The notes under the pieces: generated by a model
What the model was told of the DNA's origin: nothing
Databases searched by the model: none
What the model saw: only the letters and a program-made list of their open reading frames with translations
Assembly (NCBI RefSeq): GCF_044704955.1
Contig: NC_091980.1
Span: 275,652,001 to 275,716,000 of the forward strand
Direction: 5' to 3'
Source: Pristiophorus japonicus
Lineage: Eukaryota
Length of the DNA stretch: 64,000 bases
Part shown: positions 11,825-63,256 of the stretch, piece by piece
How positions within the stretch are numbered: the stretch's first letter is position 1
Layout of the letters: each line of letters starts with the position of its first letter
Program-made: the position numbers and the translations under genes

Positions 11825-13090
11825 CTATTTACAAGGTGAGGCAGTCAGGACCCTTTCTTTCCCTGGTGGACCGCCTCGGTACAAATGTCTGTTCTGGTGT
11901 GTTGGCTGTGCCCTCACTGGGCTGGCATGTTGTTGGCCCTGCAGGGCTGCGAGGTGAGCCTGGCCTTGCTGGGCTGTTGGGCGTGATGGGTTCGATTTCC
12001 TGGTCCGGCGTGGTGTCGTTGATCCTTTGGGTGTGTGTTGTGGGCTCGAAAAAGATGGTATCTGCTGTGGGTTGTTCAGGCAGTCTGTGAACCGCAGCCT
12101 CGTTTGGTCCAGGTGCTTTCTGCAAATGTGTCCATTGTCTAGTTTGACTACAAATACCCTATTCCCTTCTTTAGCTATCACTGTGCCCGTGATCCACTTG
12201 GGACCATGTCCATAGTTTAGCACATACACAGGGTCATTCAGATCAATTTCCCGTGACACACTGGCACGACCATCGTTTACATTTTCTTGCTGCCACCTGC
12301 TCTCTACCTGATCATGCAGGTTGGGGTGAACCAGTGAGAGTCTGGTTTTAAGTGTCCTTTTCATGAGTAGCTCAGCCGGGGGCAACCCTGTGAGCGAGTG
12401 GGATCTTGTGCGGTAGCTGAACAGTACTCGGGACAGGCGGGTTTGGAGTGAGCCTTCTGTGACTCGTTTAAGGCTCTGTTTGATAGTTTGTACTGCCCGC
12501 TCTGCCTGCCCATTGGAGGCTGGTTTAAACGGGGCCGAGGTGACATGTTTGATCCCATTGCGGGTCATAAATTCTTTAAATTCGGCACTGGTGAAACATG
12601 GCCCGTTGTCACTGACCAGTATGTCAGGCAGGCCGTGGGTGGCAAACATGGTCCTCAGGCTTTCAATGGTGGCGGTGGCGGTGCTTCCCGACATTATTTC
12701 ACATTCAATCCACTTTGAAAAAGCATCAACCGCCACCAGGAACATTTTACCGAGAAACGGGCCCGCATAGTCGACATGGATCCTCGACCATGGTCTGGAG
12801 GGCCAGGACCACAAATTTAGTGGTGCCTCTCTGGGCGCGTTGCTCAACTGAGCACATACGCTGCATTGCCGTACACAGGACTCTAAGTCAGAGTCGATAC
12901 CGGGCCACCATACGTGGAATCTGGCTATCACTTTCATCATTACTATACCTGGGTGTGTGCTGTGGAGATCCGAGATGAACGTCTCCCTGCCCTTTTTTGG
13001 TAGCACTACGCGGTTACCCCACAACAGGCAGTCTGCCTGAATGGACAGCTCGTCCTTTTGCTGCTGAAATGGCTTGATTGGCTCTTGCAT
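11825..13090 (-). pseudogene. Gypsy integrase region
   Basis: HHCC (HSTH...CSVC) and DDE core (DYAG...SDNG...AERAV). Confidence 0.92.
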
Positions 13091-13133
13091 TTCAACGGGG
13101 ATGCTGGCCCAGCTCCCATGCAGTACACAGTTT

Positions 13134-15098
13134 TCAGTTTTTTACTAGGGACAGCAGAGGATCTTGGCTGGTCCAAGTCCTAATCTGGCGGGTCATGACA
13201 GGTGATTTATCATTTTCAAATGCTTCCATGACCATCAACAAATTTGCAGGCTGCGCCATTTCCACCCCCGTGGTGGGCAATGGTAGCCGACTGAGAGCAT
13301 CCGCACAGTTCTTGGTGCCTGGCCTGTGGCGGATGGTATAGTTATACGCTAATAGCGCGAATGCCCACCTTTGTATGTGGGCTGAGGCATTAGTATTTAT
13401 CTCCTTGTTTTCAGCGAACAGGGATGTGAGGGGCTTGTGATCGGTTTCCAGCTCAAATTTGAGGCCAAACAGGTACTGATACATTTTCTTTACCCGAACA
13501 CACACGCTAATGCCTCTTTCTCAATCACGCTGTAGGCCCTCTCGGTCTTACACAAGCTCCTGGAAGCATAGGTGACAGGTTGCAACTTCCCCGCAACGTT
13601 AGCTTGTTGTAATACACACGTGACTCCATATGACGACGCGTCACATGCTAGCACAAGTCTTTTACACGGGTTATACAATACAAGCGGCTTGTTGGAGAAT
13701 AAAATGTTTCTGGCTTTCTCAAAAGCAATTACTTGGTTTTTTCTCCATACCCAGTTCTCACCTTTGCGCAATAACACATGTAGGGGCTCTAAAAGGGCGC
13801 TTAACCCTGGTAGGAATTTACCAAAATAATTGAGGAATCCCAGGAACGACCGCAGCTCCGTGACGTTCTGTGGCCTGGCGTGTTCCTGATAGCCTCTGTC
13901 TTGGCGTCTGTGGGCTGAATGCCATCTGCCGCGAACTTTCTCCCCAAAAACTCCACGTCTGTTGCCATGAAGACGCATTTCGACCTCTTCAGCCGCAACC
14001 CTACATGATTCAGTTGCTGGAGGACTTCCTCCAGGTTTTGTAGGTGCTCGACGGTGTCCCGACCCGTGACCAATATGTCGTCCTGAAAGACCACGTGTGT
14101 GGTACCGACTTGAGTAGGCGCTCCATGTTTCTCTGGAAAATCGCTGCAGCCGACCAAATTCCAAATGGACATCTGTTGTAGATGAACAGTTCCTTGTGCA
14201 TGTTGATGTAGGTGAGGCCCTTCGAAGACTCCTCCAGCTCCTGCGTCATGTAGGCCGAAGTCAGGTCGAGTTTGGTGAACGTCCTGCCTCCTGCCAGCGT
14301 CGCAAATAGGTCGTCTGCCTTAGGTAGCAGGTGTTGGTCCTGTAGCGAGAAACGATTAACAGTTACTTTATAATCATCACAAATCCTGACCGTGCCATCA
14401 CTTTTTAGTACTGGAACAATCGGGCTGGCCCACTCACTGAATTCCACTGGGGAGATGATGCCCTCGCGTTGCAGCCTGTCCAGCTCGATTTCCACTCTCT
14501 CCCTCATCATGTGAGGTACCGCTCGCGCCTTGTGGTGAATGGGTCATGCCTCTGGGACCAAGTGGAGCCGCACCTTCGCCCCGGAAAAGTTTCCAATGCC
14601 TGGCTTAAAAAGGGAAGGAAATTTGTTTAGAACATGGGTACATGAGGCCTCATCGATGTGTGATAACGCTCGGATGTCATCCCAGTTCCAGCGGATTTCG
14701 CCCAGCCAGCTCCTTCCAAGCAGTGTGTGGCCATCGCCCGGGACAATCCAGAGTGGCAGTTCGTGCACCGTGACCTTGTAGGTGACCTTGACCATGGCGC
14801 TGCCCAAGACAGTGATAAGCTCTCTGGTGTACGTTCTCAGTTTCGTGTGGATAGGGCTCAGGGCTGGTCTGAATGCCTTGTTGCACCACAGTCTCTCAAA
14901 CATCTTTTTACCCATGATGAATTGGCTAGCACCAGTGTCCAGTTCCATGGCTACGGGTAAGCCATTCAATTTTACATTTAGCATCGTAGGTGGACATTTC
15001 GTCGAAAATGTGTGCACCCCGTGTACTTCAGTATCTGCCTCCTCTCTCTGAGGCTCGAAATTGCTTTGGTCCACCATGGACCGATCTTCCTCTGCCAC
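13134..15098 (-). pseudogene. Gypsy protease-RT-RNase H, split over several frames
   Basis: LDTGAS protease; WASPIVPV, KLDL, FQDDILV RT; CDASSYG, EKEALA, TDHKPL RNase H. Confidence 0.92.
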
Positions 15099-15961: not shown

Positions 15962-16157
15962 TATTGTGTTCCTAACACAGATGAGGCTGCACACAGGGAG
16001 GTTAAAGTAACAGTGAGCTCAGTCCAGAGTGAGGAATAGGCCTTAGGGGCCGGCTTATATACAGTGCTCCCAAGGGATGCTGGGATCTCTTGGAACTTCA
16101 GGGAATGAGCTTCCTGGTGGCAGAACATGGGAGTGCATGCTTTACAGATACACAACA
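15962..16157 (-). repeat. 5' LTR (196 bp)
   Basis: Direct repeat of 11576-11786 with a 15-bp deletion; followed by the PBS. Confidence 0.95.
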
Positions 16158-18699
16158 ATAGTCAAACAGGTGCCAGTATTTGGAGCGAGAGTGTTGCCAC
16201 GATGCCTTGTATTTGTCCCTCTGGCGGAACAGCGTGTTGGTAATGAGGAGTTCATGTTCTAGACATTTTGTCAGGAGTAGGGTACTGCTGGAATTGGCTT
16301 TTCCTACCCCCTCCCTGCCAATCACACCTCCCCAGAGGGCTGTGTCTTTGCCAACCCTGGCATTAAAATCACCCAGGAGGATCAATCTGTCGCCCGTGGG
16401 GACACGGGACAAGGATGTCTCGAGGTTGGAATAAAAACCCTCTTTAGCCTCATCCATTGCATAGAGTGTAGGGGCATACGCACTGATGACTGTGGCACAT
16501 TGGTTCCGAGACAGGGTGATACGGAGAGTCATGAGGCATTCGTTGACCCCACAGGGGGAGTCTTTGAGGCAGTAGACCAGCTCACTCTTGATGGCAAAGC
16601 CGACTCCATGAAGGCGGCGTTCTGCCTCTGGTTTCCCTTTCCAGAAGAAGGTGTAACATCCACCAGGTTCCTTCAACTGGCCTTCCCCTGCCCGCCGGGT
16701 CTCGCTTAGGGCGGCGATGTCACTGTCAAAACGTCTGCGTTCCCGGGCAACTCTGGCGGTGCGGCGTTCCGGCCTGTTGCTGTTGGGATTATCCATGAGG
16801 GTCCTGACGTTCCAGGTCCAGAACTTCATACTGACGGAGTGGAAGATGCCCTTGCGTGAGTTCTTTTAACGTGGCCGCTGCGCACCAGCAACCACACGGG
16901 CTTAGCTGAACAAGGTCTTGGTCCAGTGGCAAGGGGGTCCAAGACAACTGGAGACCAGGCACAGTTGTATAAGCCTAATTGCCTACGGCATAGTGTTGGC
17001 CGCAAGTTCGGTGCCGGGTAGCGCCATTGATGGTAGATGGCACGAGACTAGGTTGGGAGGCAGGCATTAGGAAGGTGACTTCCAAAGTAATTTAAACAAA
17101 TTAAAAGTTGATAAAGGTTCCCAATTTATTTCAAAAGTTTCTAAGCGTTGTTAAAAATCTAAGATGTAAATCAATAATAGATTATAAAAGTTTCCCCAAT
17201 TTAAAAAGTTTCTAAAAGTTGTTAAAAGTCAAAGATGTAATTTAATAATAGATATTTAAAAGTATTTCAGGTGAGAGTCTAAAATGTATGTTTTAAAAGT
17301 TCTCCCAGATTGTTTAATAAGTTTAAAAGTTGGCTAAAAGTTTAAAAATTAATTAAAAGTTGGTTGGGAGTATGAGACGACGCCACGCCTCGGTCCCTTC
17401 AGCCGGTTAGGCACCAGCCTCGGAGTCCCCTTGACCGGTCCCACATCCTCGAGTCCCCCCCCTTTGGCAGGTCGTCCCGGAGTCCCCTCGGCCGGCCAGA
17501 CGCCCTCCGAATCTGGTGCAGCAACCCTTTGGGGAGAACTCTCTGCAGAATTTGAGGGCCTGCCTTCCCTAAGCGGAACTCAAGTTTTGTTCCCTGCCTC
17601 CAGAGGCAATGCAGCAAATGTAAGCGGCCAGCTTGCCACTTGTTTCAATGGGACCCCGTGCCGGCCGCTTCTGTCCCTGGCCGAAGGGGCCCTGTACCAA
17701 CCGCATCTGTCCCCAGCTGAAGGGACTCTGCACCGGCCCAGAACAGCTGCTGGGGTTGGGCTGCACCTCTGGTCAGTGTCCCGTGGGGGGTGGGGGGGTT
17801 GGCCGGCTTGGGGGTAAATAATAAAATCTTGCCGTCAAACTATGAGACTATTTGAAGGAGGCATCAGAGCGGTGCACCTATATAGGTTAACAAGATTGTT
17901 AAAGGTATTGAAAAAGTTAGCCTCGAATATTACTTCAAATTAAAGTATTGGAGCAGAACGAGGGGACTCAGGTTCAAGCAAGTAAATGGTAATATTAAGA
18001 CTGGTGTCAGTAAGTTTTTACACGGTGAGCAATGTGTGGAATAAACTTCCAGATAGAATAGTAGAGGCAAAACTCCTGGAATCATTTAAGAACCAATTGG
18101 ATGCTACAATAGGGGCATGTCAGGAAATCTCTGGCTGGATGATTAAAGATTGAATAGTCCTCCTCATCCATAGCTATCTTGTGATCAGGAAACCAGAAGT
18201 GACATCCCAGAAAGGATCTTTAATAAGGAAAATGGCATACCCAAGGCATTCATAAATTGTAAAGGAGCTGAGCTGAGATTTCAAGTTGCATTTAGTGTTG
18301 TGTTAGGTGAAACATGCAAATGCCTGACTTGAGCCCACATTATAATCAGGATGCATGAAGCATTTAGAACAAATACTCTAACCCTCTGCAAACTCAGGCG
18401 ATTGATTATATAGATGCCTTGAGTTATTCAATTTATGTTCTTAGGACAACATAGAAAATCCCTCTTGGAAAAAATAAAGAGTCCCTCATATTGGATCCAT
18501 CATGGTGAGCCTTTGCAATGCACTTTCCAGCTTTCTAACTATACACATTTAAAGACCATTTTAACTGCAGGCACTATTACATCGTTGCACGCCAGCTGGT
18601 CATTCAGCATTCCTCAGTGTATGTTAAACACCCCTGCAGGCACAAATCACACTGATTACTTCTACGCTGAGAGTTCCTCAACTGAAGGAAACCTTCCAA

Positions 18700-39330: not shown

Positions 39331-41875
39331 ACACCAGTCTGAGTTGGGTGTGGATTTAGGGCCTAAAGATGGAACTTTTATCGCAGTCCCCATAGTATGG
39401 GTCGTTTTGAAAGCAAAAATACAGCCAACTCTGAGAAGGTCAATAGCTTATAGTCATCAACTGTAATTAACATTGGACAATGTATATTCAAACACAGCAT
39501 TAACGTTCGTATATTTGTTTGCTCTTTGCAAGTATAGCAATTTTGCACTAAAACATATAAACCACATCAGCATTGCTCAATATACACAACTGTGGTTAAA
39601 ATATTAGTTAATAAATATCAAGGGTGAAAAATATTAACTATCAATTATATAAGGGTTCCTAAAAATTAGAACACCAACAACGTCGCTTGTCAATGCTTTA
39701 TAACATGCATGTTGCCGATACCATCATAAAATGTAGCATTTTTTTTTATCAGCACCCTCCGCACAAAGCACTCCCAACTATTTACTGGCCATCCCGTCGC
39801 TGCAATAACACCACCGGGAAACCGACAGCGCCTTCAGTTGTATATTAAACGCGGAATAAGGGCTGGTCTTATGAAGTCAAACAGCGCACTCACGCCAATT
39901 ACTTTGGGTACTGTTTTCTGTACTCTAACACGGGCAACCAGCTTTTTCTCTCAGCACGTCGGCAGGTGAATGTGGATGTGAAACCTACAACCGGTCATCG
40001 GGAGCATTCAGACCAGACTGTGTCTGTGTAAATATCCCTACATTACAACAGCGACTGCACTTCAAAAAGAAAAGGTACTTCATTGGCGAAAAAGCGCGTT
40101 GGGACGTCCTGAGGTGGCGAAAGGCGCTACAGAAATGCAAGTTATTTTTCTCTAAACTGGTCAGATTTCAGCTAACTAGCCGTACCACGAGGACTAATAT
40201 TCCAAGTCCCAGATAGGTTTTAGTTGTTACAAGTTTTCATACCAATGTGACATTGAATGCCACGTATAGTTGTTAGAATTATTTTTATGAGTTTGGACAG
40301 CTATTTTTTTTTACATTGGATTACATTACATAGGATATACAGCATAGTAAAAGGCATTTCGGCCCAAACAGTCCATGCCCGCGTTTACACTCCACTCGAG
40401 CCTCATTGAAACATAGAAAATAGGTGCAGGAGCAGAACCCTTCGAGTCTGCACCACCATTCAATAAGATCATGGCTGATCATTCCCGTTTTTTTTCCTTT
40501 TTTTTTCTAAATCCATCAGCGTAACCCTCTATTCCCTTCACCCTTATGTACATGTCTAGCCTCCCCTTAAATGCATCTATACTATTCGCTTCAAACACTC
40601 CCTGTGGAAGCGAGTTCCACATTCTCACCAGTCTCTGGGTAAACAGGCTTCTTCTGAATTCCCCATTGGATTTCTTGGTGACTTGTTGTTGTTGTTGACA
40701 TTGGTGAACCTACCTGAGATTTAGGGCAAGGGGCCATGCGCTACTTCCATGTTGATCAGATTGGGGTTTATTCTAGAGAACTCCTTATTAAAAGACTTTC
40801 CAGCGATGGTCACTCAGCCTGAGTTACGTTTAAAACAATCTGGAGAGTCTTTAAACAAAGGGTAACCTACGCCCTGATTCTATAAAATGGGAAGTATTGT
40901 AGGGCGGGACAGACCAAAGCAGGCACTTCACGGAGAGCTGGAATCGTTGAATTTGCTTGGGTCTGTCACTTCGGCCACTGCAGTGTGTTCCCAGACAATC
41001 CCGCTCTAAATGTAAAGGAGTGTGACCAAGATCTTTGGATTTGTGTTTCTCAAATGACCAACAGGTTCCTGGAAAATTATGAAACACAAATTATATTTTG
41101 ATTATTTTAAATACCTGCAAAATTATTTTGCATTTTGCAATTGAAGACATCTTTGGAAAATGTGATATTGGTGACAGCCGTGAGCTGCAATCTAGTGACA
41201 CCGGGGGAAATCCTTCCAGGAAAAAATGCTATTTTTAGCTCTCCACGTAAAGCAATTCGGAGATACTCCCAGAACTCACATCCTAGGAACAATCGAAAAT
41301 GGACGAATATTTCTTCACGTGTAAGCTTGGAATAATGCCATTAAATTTACTTCTAACACCGAGTGTCACCTTCACTTTTTTTTTAAAACCCCGAATATTT
41401 ACACAAAGATTAATTGTTAAATTCAACCTTCTTTTTGGCTCTTTCTGTTGAGTTTTCTTTTAAGCAGTGAGTGATCCTAGCATAAAAACCGAAAATGCTG
41501 GAAATGCTCAGCAGGTCAAGCAGCATCTGTGGAGAGAAGCACAGAGTGCACGTTTCAGGTCGGTAACCTATGGCAGAGTAATCCTGTAGTTGGTTAGAGG
41601 TGACTGCTCATCACTAAGACTGCTTTAAAAAAAAGTGTTCCTGGCATGTGGTGTCGCTGGCAAGACCAGCATTTATTGCCCATCCCTAATTGCCCTTAAG
41701 AAGGTGGTGGTGGGTCCAGGGACGGATTAAGGGTGCCTAGGGCCCCAGGCAGTACCCCGACCATAGGCCCACTACTCCCATTCACATCCTGCAGTAAATG
41801 ACATTACTGAGCTAAGTCACAGGGCACTATACTGAGTATGCATCAGGTCAAGATCAGGTTAGGTCTATATCTCAG

Positions 41876-42325
41876 GTTATGTTCTCACTGATATTATGAC
41901 AGTCATTTATCCTACATGGCTACTGTTGGTACTATCACAAGGTGTGCCACCAGAGGGCACCAGTGGGAGACTTGTAGGTTACCTGTACAGGTGTGCCTGG
42001 CCTAGTATAAAAGGCAGGCCACCAGGTGTGATCCTCACTCTGGAGTTAATAAATAAAGGACTAAGGTTACTACAGTTCAAGTACAACACTTTGCCTTGTG
42101 GAGTCATTATTAGAGCATCCAAGGACACAACAATTGGTGACGAGATTACGAACTTTCACGCGAAAATGGCTACCCTTGGTACGTTGCAACAGTTCGCCGA
42201 TGGTGATAATTGGGACGCCTTTGTGGAGAGGCTCGACCATTTCTTCACAGCAAATGACCTGGCAGGAGACGACCCGGCCACACTGGCTGATAAGTACAGA
42301 GCTATCCTGCTAACCAGTTGTGGTG
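41876..42325 (+). mobile_element. Truncated Gypsy element: 5' LTR, PBS and gag N-terminus
   Basis: TATAAAA 42006, AATAAA, LTR end ...CACAACA 42132, PBS TGGTGACGAG 42135, gag from 42166 (MATLG...DNWDAFVERLDHFFTANDL), homologous to the gag at 15929. Confidence 0.88.
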
Positions 42326-42377: not shown

Positions 42378-42886
42378 ATTAAATATGAGGTGGGTGGGGA
42401 GGGTTGACCCATCCACCTCCACGGAGGTGTGTGGGGGACCTGACCCATCCACCTCCATGGCACGAACCTGGTATTGCAGTACTTCCAGGAACGGTGCAGT
42501 GGCTCTAGGCCTTTTGGCTAAGAGCATTGGCGCAGAGTGATCCTTGGCATGTGCAAGGTGACCTCTGGCGTTTGTGATTTGACAAAGAATTGGAACGATT
42601 GGCTACGAATTTAAAAAAAAAAAAAAATTAAATATGAGGTGGGTGGGGTGGATTGACCCATCCACCTCCACGGAGGTGTGTGGGGGGCCTGACCCATCCA
42701 CCTCCATGGCACGAACCTGGTATTGCAGTACTTCCAGGAACGGTGCAGTGGCTCTCGGCCTTTTGGCTAAGAGCATTGGCGCAGAGTGATCCTTGATGTG
42801 TGCAAGGTGACCTCTGGCGTTTGTGATTTGACAAAGAATTGGAAAGATTGGCAACGAAAAATTTAAAAAAAAAATTAAATATGAGG
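42378..42886 (+). mobile_element. Tandem dimer of a poly(A)-tailed, snRNA-derived (U2 plus U6-like) SINE-like retroposon
   Basis: Units 42391-42626 and 42640-42873; ATTAAATATGAGG at 42378, 42627, 42874; U2 motifs CCTGGTATTGCAGTAC.TCCAGGAACGGTGCA and TCTCGGCCTTTTGGCTAAGA. Confidence 0.8.
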
Positions 42887-43865: not shown

Positions 43866-44139
43866 ATGGACGAACATCACTTTAGTGTTGATAAGATGGG
43901 ATTTTGTGGGGAAGGCCAAATAGTTCTCTAAAAAATCTATAAAAGATGGGAAATAAAGAATAATAAGTCTGATAGCAAACAGGTACACACACTTAAAAAG
44001 GAATAGCTGGAGTTTCTCCCTTTTTTTCCTGGTGCAAACTGGAGGGGAGGAGATGTGAAAGTAAACTAGGTCCTCCAGCCGCTAGAGGCACGCTGTGGAT
44101 GTACACCCCCTCAGTAGTGGGGGTCCCTCTTGCCACCTT

Positions 44140-44560
44140 GCACTGCTCGGTCGCCCCAGCAACAGCCCGGATACAGTCGGCAATAATACGGAAGCGGATG
44201 CATTTGTGACTCGTCAGCCGGCCGAGGTCGTGGTGCGGAGGAAAGAAAAAGGCACCCGAGACAAGGCGATGGATTAAAGCGAGCGTCGCCGCCGCTCCGG
44301 CCTCCTTTCCCTCCCCTTCCCCTACCCTCCCTTCACCTTTCCCGGCCACAACTGCCGCTGCTTCTTCCTAATGGTGAGTGAGTGAGTGAGTGAGCGGAGG
44401 CCGGGGCTCGGCCCGGGGCCCGGGGGGAGCCTCATGCTGAGCCTGGGCTCTGACAGCTTTGGGTAACCGCGTCCTCCTCAATCAGGGCCAGCCATGGGGC
44501 CACTCAGACACCGACCGATCGGCCGCCAGGCTCCGGGCTGTGCTGACCCTCCCCACCCCA
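44140..44560 (+). promoter_or_regulatory. LYSET: CpG island: LYSET promoter and probable first exon ending at 44373
   Basis: CpG-rich; CGGAAG ETS site near 44189; donor ATG|GTGAGT; matching acceptor (T)n attgcAG at 47468. Confidence 0.7.
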
Positions 44561-44975: not shown

Positions 44976-47487
44976 CAGGCTCTGAGTCATTGATAACCAT
45001 TTTGTCCCTGAGCAAGAAGATCTTCACATTATCATGCTTCCAGTGCAGTACTGAGGGAGTAAGAGGTGCGTCCTTCTGATGCCTAATCTGCTTGCTCAGT
45101 TGGATGAAAGATCATGTGCTATTTGTAAGAGAAAGATGAGTTTACCAGGTGCCCTGATCAACAGCTGTCTCTGAACCACACCATCAAAACAGACTGGTCA
45201 TATTTATGTGACCATACATGTTTACTTGTGTATTGACAGTAGCTGCATAGTGTAATTCATTCTATGTAAGCAGTTTGGGATGATTCTGAGATGTGATGAG
45301 GTGCTCTATAAATGTTGTTTATTTAACTATTGGCTAGATGTAGTCTGAATACCATTACTGGATTTCAGTGTACCTTGAGAATAATGTTAGTGTTGCATTC
45401 TAAGACCTTTTCACAAAGGAGGCTTAATTATTTGATCTGTAATCCTTTTAATGTAATTGTTTTGCTGATTTATATCTGGCAGTATTTTTTTTAAGTTGGT
45501 GATGGAGCATCGTGTTTTGTTTCAGTGGCAGCTTCATATAAAACCTTTTGCTGAAGGTAATTCTTGATTGTTTCTGGAACTGAGCCTGCTTGAACGCTCT
45601 CTGATTTTCCTGCAGGTTTCTTCCCTTTCCCATTTTGATGCACCTGACCCTGTTTCTTGACCCGGTTGCCTTTGATTGCAGGTGCTGAGGTCTTGCATCA
45701 CTGACCAGGTTCTCACACGTAAACAACTTGATTTCCAAATAGCTAACTGCAGGAGAAACCCATTGTTTTTGTGGGTGTCTCAATGTAACACTGAACCAGT
45801 AACTGTCTCCTGTGGCCTGCTTTTAATGCCATATTTTGATTACTGGAACCTTACTGGTTTTGAGGACAGGTGTGTGAGCTGGTAGTCCAGCTGTTACAAT
45901 GCTAATTCATCTTGCCAACAGTTATCATGTCTGCTGACACCAGCACTTTTTTGAGTAATATTGATCAGAATGGTTCTTGAGTAACATTTAAAGCCAGTCT
46001 ATACCTGATTTTTATATTGTGTTGAAGCCCATTTTTACCTTATCTTTTCTGCAGCTTGCAAAGCACTTATTATTAAGCGTTGTCTAACAAAAAAACTTAT
46101 ACATTGCTCTTAGGAGTAATTGAAGAATAGATGTGCATCAACACACATCCATCCGTCTATCAAATGTATTGTATTTAATGCAGGTACCACTGCCACCAAC
46201 AAGTATTTAAATTATCTACAAGGGCCTTATTTGGGCGGCTGAGAAAGAAAAATGGAGAGTTGGGAAAAATACAGAGAGGTGACCAGCATTCACTGAGCCA
46301 TATCCCATTGAGGAGTCAGCATCTTCAGGAAATGGGGAGGGGGGAGAGCACTAGATACTTCACTATTTCCATATGTATGTGTGTGTATGAAGTGTTGCCC
46401 TCTCTACCAACACCTCCCATTGAGGGTGTAGCAAGGAATTACTTGCTACCATGATCTTGCATTTATTTTGCACTATGGAGCTTTAAAAAGCTCTGACTGG
46501 AAAAACAAGGAGACATAGCTTTATCTCTTTCATGGCTTTAATCAAGGCTCACACATGAATTCTTTTGGATAGAGTACATTTTATTCTTGGAAAAATAATT
46601 GATATTGGTCCTCTGCAGAGTGCTTTTCATAGATGGGCCAAGATTACAGACAAAGGAGTAAGACATTGTTTGGTCGGGGAAATTGTTTTGATTCAATTGT
46701 GGTACACACAACGCTGATTTAGAATAAGCCCTTGAAGTGCTGTGTGTTCAGGTGTTTTTTAATCATCCATGTTTACAGCAGTCCTTGAACATTTCAGATA
46801 CTAATGCTTGAAATGAGTAGAGTAATCCACTACCACATTTCAATTTTTCAAACCAAAATAAATGCATTCTTCCCTTTTGCCTAATAATGCTATGTAAAAA
46901 TGGAAAACAATCGTAAGGCATGGAAACAAGAAGTTATAGTCCTACAGCATTCCACACGTATAGAGAATTGTCTCTGAATGCTTCATAGCATAGCGGAAGA
47001 ATAGCTGCCAAGTAGGAAGAAGAGTGAGTCGATCAAGGGGCAAAAGCACGTTTGAAGGGAGATGATACGGTGGAGGTGCTGGGGGGACAGAGAGATCCAG
47101 AGGGCGGGGGCCATGGTGGCTGAAGGAATGGTCACCTGTTGTAGAGCTGGGTTCAAGGACCAGGCAGTATCAGAGAGCAGGGGCTGTGTTGATCAGCATC
47201 TGAAAGAGAAAGGTAGGTGACGGTTTCTAATGTGGGCCTTCACAACTGAAATATTAAGCCAACTTCCTCTTTCAGTCACTGGCTGTGCATTTCCAGCAGT
47301 TTCAAGTTCCTTTTTGTCTTAATCTCCATCATCCTGTGTTCTTTAAAAGGAGATCTGATTGCAGTTTCGGGGTCACTGGGCAAATGATTCCCTTTCAGAT
47401 GCGCTAAGATTGTTAGCCTTTCATTTATTTTAACCCATCTTTGAACTATCTTTTTTTTTATATTGCAGAAAAAGTAGATTATGGAGA

Positions 47488-47883
47488 ATGATGAACTTTC
47501 GCCAGCGAATGGGTTGGATTGGTGTAGGATTGTATCTGCTAGCAAGTGCTGCAGCCTTTTATTACGTATTTGAAATAAATGAAACTTACAACCAACTGGC
47601 TTTGGAGCATATTCAGCGGAACTCTGAGGACCTGGGCATTGGAGCTTCTTGGACACAGACAGTGACAGCGCGCTTGTTTTCGCTCCCATTCTGGCTCTGG
47701 GCTATCCTGTTTCTGATTCCATACCTGCAAATCTTCTTATTCTTGTATTCGTGCACGAGAGCCAATCCCAAGACAGTTGGCTACTGCATTTTCCCAATCT
47801 ATCTGGCAGTCGTCTGCAATCGCCACCAAGCGTTTGTCAAAGCCTCCAATCAAATCAACAGATTGAAAATAATTGATACATGA
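47488..47883 (+). CDS. LYSET: Lysosomal enzyme trafficking factor LYSET (TMEM251), 131 aa
   Basis: MMNFRQRMGWIGVGLYLLASAAAFYYVFEI...YSCTRANPKTVGYCI...NRHQAFVKASNQI, recognisable TMEM251 sequence; synteny with ITPK1, GON7 and UBR7. Confidence 0.98.
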   Translation: MMNFRQRMGWIGVGLYLLASAAAFYYVFEINETYNQLALEHIQRNSEDLGIGASWTQTVTARLFSLPFWLWAILFLIPYLQIFLFLYSCTRANPKTVGYCIFPIYLAVVCNRHQAFVKASNQINRLKIIDT

Positions 47884-62054: not shown

Positions 62055-62562
62055 GTGAGTTTGAAGGAGTTTTCTTTGTGCCTGGGGCTGGCCCCTTGAA
62101 CCGCGCAGATTTATAAGCAGCCGGGCTGTGGGATGGCCCTGGTCCCCAGGGGGGAAGTAACGGCAATTCCCAGCACCAAATAAAGAGAGTTATTGTGGAT
62201 CCTCCCCCCCCCCCCCCAGAGCAATAAGGGAGCGAGTCCATTACACTGATCAGTTTCAGACATGTTATCAATACATCGGTGCAGCAAGAAACAAAGGCGC
62301 CTTTTAATTAATACACAGTGGCCGCAGTCAGTGTTTGCAGTCCTGGGTTTGGGGATTTATTCCTGCTCAGGACTGGTGCCCCGGACAGCGAGTTGCTATA
62401 AAGCAACTGCTTCCCTCGCAGCCGCGGTACTGAGCTGGACATCGCCCCCTCCCCGGGAACTCCGGCCTTTACCCGCGCCATTTTTACGTAATGTGTTCTG
62501 GCCCGTTTGTGATTGGCTCGACAAGAGTCGCTTCGTTCTGTTTTTTGGAATGTTGGTATTTG

Positions 62563-63256
62563 TGCATTCTGCAGGGTCCCTGATCTGTGATTCAGGGCTT
62601 GAGGGTCCAGTGCATTCTGCAGGGTCCCTGCTCCGTGTGATCTAGGGACTGAGGGCCCATTGCATTCTGCAGGGTCCCTGCTCTGTGATTCAGGGCTTGA
62701 GGGTCCAGTGCATTCTGCAGGGTCCCTGCTCTGTGATTCAGGGCCCGAAAGTCCACTGCATTCTGCAGGGTTCCTGCTCCGTGTGATCTAGGGACTGAGG
62801 GCCCAGTGCATTCTGCAGGGTCCCTGCTCTGTGATTCAGGGCTTGAGGGTCCAGTGCATTCTGCAGGGTCCCTGCTCTGTGATTCAGGGCCCGAAAGTCC
62901 ACTGCATTCTGCAGGGTTCCTGCTCCGTGTGATCTAGGGACTGAGGGTCCAGTGCATTCTGCAGGGTCCCTGCTCTGTGATTCAGGGCCCGAAAGTCCAC
63001 TGCATTCTGCAGGATCCCTGCTCCGTGCAATACAGGAATTGAGGGTCCCGTGCATTCTGCAGGGTCCCTGCTCTGTGCAATACAGGAATTGAGGGTCCCT
63101 GCTCTGTGCAATACAGGAATTGAGGGTCCTGTGCATTTTGTAGGGTCCCTGCTCTGTGTAGTCCAGGGCCTGAGAATCCAGTGCATTCTGTAGGGTCCCT
63201 GCTCTTGTGTAATCCAGGACTGAGGATCCAGTGCATTCTGCAGGGTCCCAGCTCTG
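62563..63256 (+). repeat. 48/50-bp minisatellite (about 14 units) in UBR7 intron 1
   Basis: Core TGCATTCTGCAGGGTCCCTGCTC starts at 62563, 62611, 62661, 62709, 62757, 62807, 62855, 62903, 62953, 63001, 63051, 63132, 63182, 63232. Confidence 0.95.

Follow-up and report, generated by a model that had tools for sequence, protein, structure and literature searches.

The window analysed here, a stretch of 64,000 nucleotides from Pristiophorus japonicus, carries two adjacent A-tailed units in which the 3' end of U2 snRNA seems to precede its 5' end. The initial annotation read these units as a retroposon built of permuted spliceosomal snRNA pieces with U6- and U4-like motifs, perhaps derived from a circular or ligated snRNA. 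This raises the questions of what kind of element the units belong to, what moves it, and whether its U2 pieces are permuted at all.

Two insertions at one site and the family they belong to

The sequence blocks listed in the initial annotation were all found in place when the window was rechecked. The insert consists of two 249-nt units, ~95% identical to each other and each closed by an A tail, and a 13-mer occurs three times around them, which we read as a single target-site duplication (TSD) enclosing both inserts (Table 1). The nick site at the first copy of this duplication agrees with the family consensus, RY|AW. The two copies differ at 12 positions, including the tail loop and the loop of stem-loop III, and match two different subfamilies; they are therefore two insertions at one site, and local tandem duplication of one insert is ruled out.

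Table 1. Features of the double insertion, in window positions.
Feature	Position	Strand	Remark
Target-site duplication, first copy	42378..42390	+	last 3 nt also match the element (microhomology)
First U2 stem-loop III derivative	42389..42420	+	5' arm clipped
SINE copy 1	42391..42612	+	5'-truncated ~8-11 nt 3' of the Sm site
Second, duplicated U2 stem-loop III derivative	42423..42456	+	first hairpin of the initial annotation
U2 stem-loop IV	42460..42499	+	U2 nt ~147-186
Second U2 5' fragment (stem-loop I)	42504..42523	+	U2 nt 7-26; head of the older core unit
Non-U2 hairpin tail	42524..42612	+	contains the U6-like 12-mer at 42588-42599
Copy 1 A tail	42613..42627	+	
Target-site duplication, middle copy	42627..42639	+	
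SINE copy 2	42640..42862	+	other subfamily than copy 1, same truncation point
Copy 2 A tail	42863..42874	+	
Target-site duplication, last copy	42874..42886	+	

When the window unit was aligned with this genome's own U2 gene (L031), it matched U2 nt 109-186 (75%, E 4e-12) and then U2 nt 7-29 (91-96%, E 8e-5 to 1e-5). Stem-loop IV of U2 is the binding site of U2B''/U2A'. In a cmscan of the window against Rfam the U2 match reached 30.5 bits (E 0.001), under the gathering score of 46, and matches to prion pseudoknot and miRNA models all fell under their own cut-offs; a full-length copy of the family scored 57.5 bits and was colinear with U2 model positions 1-192. The covariance-model check that had been proposed is thus passed by the full element and not by the truncated copies of the window.

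Several features lie near the insertion or elsewhere in the window. A TMEM251 coding exon (Pfam PF15190) is found at 47434-47880 (+), with a probable first exon, placed by eye, near 44370 in a G+C-rich stretch near 44100-44500; with that exon the insertion would sit ~1.5 kb upstream of TMEM251. Just left of the insertion, at ~41870-42320, an LTR, a primer-binding-like site and the broken start of a gag-like frame were recognised by eye, with no Pfam match. The stretches 11825-13138 (-) and 16101-16865 (-) hold integrase domains of an LTR-element remnant and a LINE APE endonuclease fragment, and a tandem repeat with units of roughly 50-150 nt occupies 62562-63256.

A 20-mer from the tail had 5,016 exact matches genome-wide (control, 0), a lower bound that sets the family at 5,016 copies at least; the candidate counts of the RNA search (128,409-444,703) are not copy numbers and were excluded from the counts. 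Copy 1 matched at least 41 genomic places at full score (E 1e-108; 45 matches listed, 40 candidates scored), and 40 loci other than copy 1 itself, among those 45, had 100% identity over its positions 42392-42612. The family was sampled as 96 copies from the first 100 matches listed on contig 1. In this sample 44 copies are longer than the window unit by ~120 nt on the 5' side, with starts in U2 nt 1-13, seven of them exactly at nt 1, and no common upstream extension was seen. TSDs were 10-23 nt long (28 called at >=9 nt), with C or T at -1 in 23/28 and A at +1 in 24/28, giving the consensus above; the TSD caller returned calls for 38 of the 96 copies, its misses coming mostly from a strict tail rule and not amounting to shown absences. 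Another U2-derived SINE lay within ~500 nt of 24 of the 96. Thousands of loci, all with TSDs of their own, have identical internal junctions and linked subfamily variants. The dispersal check proposed with the initial annotation is accordingly borne out, the unit being multi-locus, with thousands of copies that have their own TSDs and A tails. One insertion with identical flanks was seen at eight places, seven on C7 and one on C349 (L001, L019-L025), next to a flank that by eye resembles the end of a LINE ORF2, and was probably spread by segmental duplication.

The full element measures 343-351 nt (~345 nt) and consists, in order, of a U2 5' end (to nt ~29 or ~37), a piece of U1 stem-loop I, the Sm-type U-run of U2, a usually doubled stem-loop III, stem-loop IV, the second U2 piece (nt 7-26), the hairpin tail and poly(A); the window copies show only its 3' two-thirds. 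Several head types occur on one SINE body. The U1 piece was significant in two of the three head types (p = 0.002) and not in the third, most worn type (p = 0.15), and the full-length copy gave a weak match to the U1 model (E 3e-4). Stem-loop III forms a perfect 13-bp stem in full copies (-27.9 kcal/mol, versus -14.8 in U2), a T5-T6 run is present inside them, and the full copy folds better than 100 of 100 shuffles (z -4.2). Against this structure the initial list of pieces was correct for U2 and overlooked U1, and its first hairpin was correctly placed without being recognised as a duplicate of U2 stem-loop III in remodelled form. The Sm site and branch-recognition region that it reported missing are absent from the window copies by truncation only; full copies have the Sm-type U-run, and one head type retains an intact branch-pairing region.

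The element is almost certainly a young family of the SINEU type. It has a U1/U2-derived 5' head, poly(A), a length under 500 bp, dispersal with target alterations and shared junctions; recurrent 5' addition of U1/U2 pieces is seen in its multiple head types, in a sister family with a plain U2 head and in locus L306 (both described below), and it has a target in common with a Tx1-clade LINE. A classical Pol III SINE was rejected, judged from the head and from Rfam: the head is U2, the full copy had no tRNA, 7SL or 5S match, and the T5-T6 run is internal to full copies.

A Keno-type LINE and SINE copies inside U2 genes

Gaps in the U2 gene arrays contain a full-length LINE inserted between U2 nt 37 and 38. 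Its ORF2 (1,135 aa) has APE, RT and zf-RVT domains, its ORF1 has ZCCHC3-type RNA-binding domains and a CCHC zinc knuckle, and its 3' junction is the Keno target as quoted in part of PMC6136364. ORF2 homologues from newt, frog and fish are 39-49% identical, and none carries an element name; one further named match, which points to a shark, is 81% identical over 6% of the ORF2. By its two ORFs, its APE and RT domains, its insertion 37 nt into U2 and its match to the published 3' target, we classify this LINE from sequence as Keno-type; in the relevant part of PMC4640811, Keno, with APE, is kept apart from Utopia. Full-length copies with two open ORFs and a U2-derived head of their own are present at L181 (G000:C1003:16500-24400, minus strand) and L183. 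Twelve Keno-type copies lie directly behind U2 5' flanks, and the LINE may therefore also be transcribed from the U2 promoter. The U2 genes form two kinds of array with unrelated 5' flanks, one of them with ~765-bp units and long (GTT)n spacers (L031-L042, L188).

The SINE uses the same site. Among 54 junctions of poly(A) with U2 nt 38 onwards, the 30 examined comprised 22 of Keno, 5 of this SINE, 1 of the sister family and 2 of another Tx1-like element. A second search pattern gave 33 main-subfamily SINE junctions at the nt 37/38 site; 26 of the 30 examined lay in copies of the sister family, which retain the site, 3 were tandem copies and 1 was of another kind, and none of these 30 was inside a true U2 gene. 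The loci with a SINE in a sister copy could partly be copies of a dimeric RNA. If ~5,500 insertions fell at random over 5.9 Gb, simple arithmetic predicts far less than one hit in all of the roughly one thousand such sites. Targeting by the LINE is relaxed, as 220 exact Keno 3' matches were found, many of them dispersed; a U2-derived SINE followed the Keno 3' end in 7/30, and in 4/30 Keno 3' ends the off-target site was one also used by sampled SINE copies. The SINE and the Keno-type LINE thus have the U2 37/38 site, off-target sites and tandem arrays in common. One multicopy repeat was struck repeatedly at one position by both, like Mariner-N4 in crocodilians (L018, L097, L115, L127, L147, L148, L150, L159, L169, L178, L295).

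Mobilisation of the SINE very probably depends on Keno. A tail derived from the Keno 3' UTR was rejected (no homology in 4/4 tests, p = 0.20-0.99), and since the SINE tail is not homologous to that UTR, we infer that Keno recognises the SINE through its A tract. The partner could instead be a sister LINE, because the SINE tail lacks homology to Keno and a second Tx1-like element occupies the same site; this second element has a different 3' UTR (L192, L195). The copies, their TSDs and the shared LINE target support the initial reading in so far as it saw a dispersed, TSD-flanked retroposon with a poly(A) tail, assembled from U2 pieces, similar to SINEU and linked with a U2-associated LINE.

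We then consider transcription. A search for either of two U2 5' flank types followed by a non-U2 head found 32 places, of which 18 held this SINE, 12 Keno, one a Keno-type head with a truncated SINE (L306) and one a U2 variant. At the 17 SINE loci examined, the flanks were identical to those of intact U2 genes at 147-150 of 150 or 199 of 200 positions and the SINE head was merged with the start of the U2 gene; in 16 of the 17, an A tract of up to ~65 nt was followed by U2 from nt 38 onwards. These loci fall into three sequence types (14, 2 and 1), which probably represent few events spread by array homogenisation. All 18 promoter-backed SINEs belong to one subfamily, C', which accounts for 8 of 30 sampled copies of subfamily C (507 in all), and the seven long dispersed C' copies compared differed from the promoter-backed copies by 1-4 changes, none being identical. 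For the two subfamilies of the window, no promoter-backed full copy was found behind the two flank types searched. At L306 (G000:C14:76772633), a U2 flank is followed by a Keno head, a SINE truncated at the Sm edge and the rest of Keno, an arrangement that, read from its sequence, shows a truncated SINE copy acquiring a new U2-type head behind a U2 flank.

Their position behind U2 flanks leads us to lean towards the U2-embedded copies as candidate source genes for SINE transcription. They may be targets and not sources, because none is identical to the seven dispersed copies compared (minimum 1 difference). In a read-through transcript from an embedded copy the A tract would be followed by U2 nt 38-191, and internal priming or trimming would be needed.

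These observations suggest the following life cycle. Keno ORF2p would nick RY|AW sites, the best of which is U2 37/38, and would prime on the A tract of the SINE, needing no common 3' tail. The U2 head of the SINE would pair with the target, and a landing in a U2 gene would restore the exact U2 start and thereby provide an external Pol II snRNA promoter, such copies then serving as source genes. In the window, members of two subfamilies would have inserted one after the other at one site, each belonging to the short class whose 5' end lies just past the Sm site. We regard it as probable that this young family as a whole consists of non-coding retroposons of the SINEU type that a Keno-type Tx1 LINE mobilises in trans, with their sources in U2 genes.

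An alternative accepts the same SINE and Tx1 partner and treats the U2-embedded copies as dead ends, the source RNA coming from read-through of other promoters or from unassembled loci. The private changes of the embedded copies, and the failure to find any for the window's subfamilies, are consistent with this, as is the fact that about half of all copies begin at an internal point, as processed read-through RNA might. However, the 44 of 96 copies that start in U2 nt 1-13, with 7 at nt 1, are as a U2 start site predicts, and the embedded copies have long A tracts and stand only 1-4 changes from dispersed ones; we consider the alternative unlikely.

Order of the U2 pieces and origin of the tail

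A sister SINE family, with at least 561 exact tail matches and two tail types (L245-L274, L148, L163, L187), bears on the apparent permutation. It consists of a whole U2, then U2 nt 6-37, then a ~40-nt tail; its U2 part is 87-99% identical to the U2 gene over the aligned stretch, and 23 of 30 copies are full length. In the youngest copies a few bases of the gene's 3' flank follow the U2 3' end, the join then reaches U2 nt 6-7 by microhomology, and the second U2 piece stops at nt 37, the Keno nick. The sister tails are homologous to the main-family tail (p = 0.001). The structure of the sister family therefore indicates that the order of U2 3' end then U2 5' end reflects a full U2 head added onto an older core of U2 5' piece and tail, followed by truncation. 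Recurrent head addition is described for SINEU-1 in the part of Kojima's paper drawn on here (PMC4494074), and we read the same process in this SINE. In the life cycle proposed above, repeated landing behind U2 starts, with template switches to U1 or U2 RNA, would generate the new heads, and it is this addition that would produce the U2-3'-then-U2-5' order.

The permutation and its circular or ligated U2 intermediate consequently have to be given up: full copies start at the U2 5' end, colinear with the model and unlike a circularly permuted U2, and the sister family has a plain join of U2 to U2(6-37). The wider proposal of a permuted U2/U6/U4 mosaic made from a circular or ligated snRNA is very improbable. 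The U2 3' end does adjoin a U2 5' piece, but in full copies a colinear U2 is followed by a further U2 5' piece, and the sister join contains 3' flank bases of the U2 gene with microhomology, its second piece ending at nt 37. Five tails compared with this genome's U6 by gapped alignment gave no significant match (5/5, p = 0.12-0.59); a stricter scoring reached p = 0.018, the exact 12-mer has p = 0.0015, and these two uncorrected values speak for the mosaic. Sister tails did not match U6 (p = 0.44, 0.73). The 12-mer is exact in only copy 1 of the two window copies and is present in 41 of the 96 sampled copies, varying among copies. The second U6-like word forms one arm of the stem in the tail and shows a compensatory change. 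Rfam models of U4 and U6 had no match at E<=5 in the window or at E<=10 in a full copy. A U6 origin of the tail is thus weak and doubtful, and the U4 origin is unsupported by these scans. A tail derived from antisense U2 was likewise rejected (p = 0.49, 0.16).

That the copies are many U2 chimeric retrocopies of independent origin, or the product of tandem duplication in place, and no self-propagating family, can practically be dismissed: the window units are adjacent and similar, and U2 retrocopies are frequent in vertebrates according to part of PMC4494074, but the identical internal junctions and linked variants recur over thousands of loci, each with its own TSD, and the window copies come from different subfamilies.

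The Sm-site boundary and known snRNA-headed elements

Both window copies belong to a truncation class in which 5' ends pile up at the Sm site. Of 52 truncated copies, 42 start between -5 and +15 of the 3' edge of the Sm heptad, a 21-nt interval of ~270 (p 2e-37; the interval was chosen after inspection of the data, and one copy's start was taken from its neighbour's alignment, with the class assigned by eye). With the origin placed at the heptad edge, the spread of these starts fits the loss of 0-12 nt in full-length copies (KS p = 0.77; p < 0.05 at -4 or +2), as would be expected of an RNA with a second 5' end or a hard block at that point. Truncation at this edge affected 42 of 90 non-C copies, 3 of 30 C copies (Fisher p = 0.0002) and 5 of 30 sister copies.

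The rate does not cleanly track the A of the Sm site or the hairpin energy. Simple blocking of reverse transcription by the Sm ring is not favoured, as the groups with a mostly intact A-U5-G are low (C, 3/30; sister family, 5/30); the commonest variant, which in longer copies has C or G before the U-run, is high (21/45), and another variant with mostly intact sites is also high (6/12). The strength of stem-loop III alone fails as well (C, -26.5 versus -27.9 kcal/mol), and a single 5' end falls at the second hairpin copy. We give an even chance to a boundary formed by an RNA cut or by 5'-3' decay stalled ahead of stem-loop III; reverse transcription blocked by a bound protein is a lesser but real possibility, and another cause is improbable. 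According to the part of PMC7293007 that concerns them, snRNAs without Sm are XRN1 substrates.

Mimicry of an snRNP by the SINE RNA is plausible. On a more far-reaching reading, which is possible if on the unlikely side, the SINE would be a counterfeit U2 snRNA: it would re-enter U2 genes through Keno, be transcribed from the U2 promoter, keep stem-loops I, III and IV and an Sm-type site, and be handled as an snRNP. Most subfamilies, with an altered nt 37/38 target, would escape hits on themselves and parasitise the sister SINE that keeps the site, and the pile-up at the Sm site would be an RNP footprint left by cleavage, stalled decay or an RT block. If true, SINEU would have arisen independently here, and one genome would contain its complete life cycle.

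The nearest relatives in structure are SINEU-1, -2 and -3 of crocodilians, which, in the portion of Kojima (2015; PMC4494074) used here, likewise have repeated U1/U2 heads, internal partial duplication, poly(A), a length under 500 bp, tandem copies round one TSD, internal oligo-T, and a Tx1 partner inferred from common targets with no tail-sharing LINE. That text describes SINEU as the one SINE class whose head lacks an internal promoter and whose transcription its discoverer left open, upstream promoters being suggested and read-through proposed for SINEU-2. The present SINE differs in occurring in a shark, whereas that paper, in this portion, found none outside crocodilians; in its partner, a U2-targeting Keno-type LINE with intact ORFs in place of Tx1-Mar, which targets Mariner-N4, and the crocodilian partner families are old (85-87% to consensus); in its copies within U2 genes behind U2 flanks, where the source leaves transcription open; and in the accumulation of 5' ends at the Sm site. 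Our placement in SINEU is by structure, and does not extend to the crocodilian families themselves. In the literature passages searched, including those of PMC5381603 and PMC5499810, SINEU was reported only in crocodilians and none was found for sharks; Repbase, Repbase Reports and Dfam lay outside this scope and may hold a shark entry.

The partner LINE resembles Keno, as described in parts of PMC4494074, PMC4640811 and PMC6136364, in its APE and RT domains, its insertion 37 nt into U2 and the quoted 3' target; it differs in its relaxed targeting (the 220 exact 3' matches), its own U2-derived head and its dependent SINEs, which are non-coding and have no tail in common with it. Utopia uses the same U2 insertion site with a restriction-like endonuclease (PMC4640811, in part), in contrast to the APE domain of the LINE here. 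For promoter capture, the closest working parallel that we can draw, by analogy and from part of PMC3414825, is with the R2 SIDEs of Drosophila, which are also non-autonomous, enter a tandem RNA-gene array by means of a site-specific LINE and rely on transcription of the array; R2 SIDEs are R2/R1 deletion derivatives with a ribozyme and a LINE 3' end, whereas the SINE here is made from the target RNA and spreads genome-wide.

New here are an intact Keno-type LINE with common targets, 18 SINE copies behind U2 flanks and a truncation hot spot at the Sm edge. Because one genome here combines a very young family with an intact partner LINE and with candidate source copies behind U2 flanks, the question of how SINEU elements are transcribed becomes testable. 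The life cycle proposed would show a second origin of snRNA-headed SINEs and a route for head renewal, and would also show a SINE disabling copies of the essential U2 gene, and the boundary at the Sm edge may be informative about encounters of snRNP proteins or decay enzymes with retrotransposon RNA.
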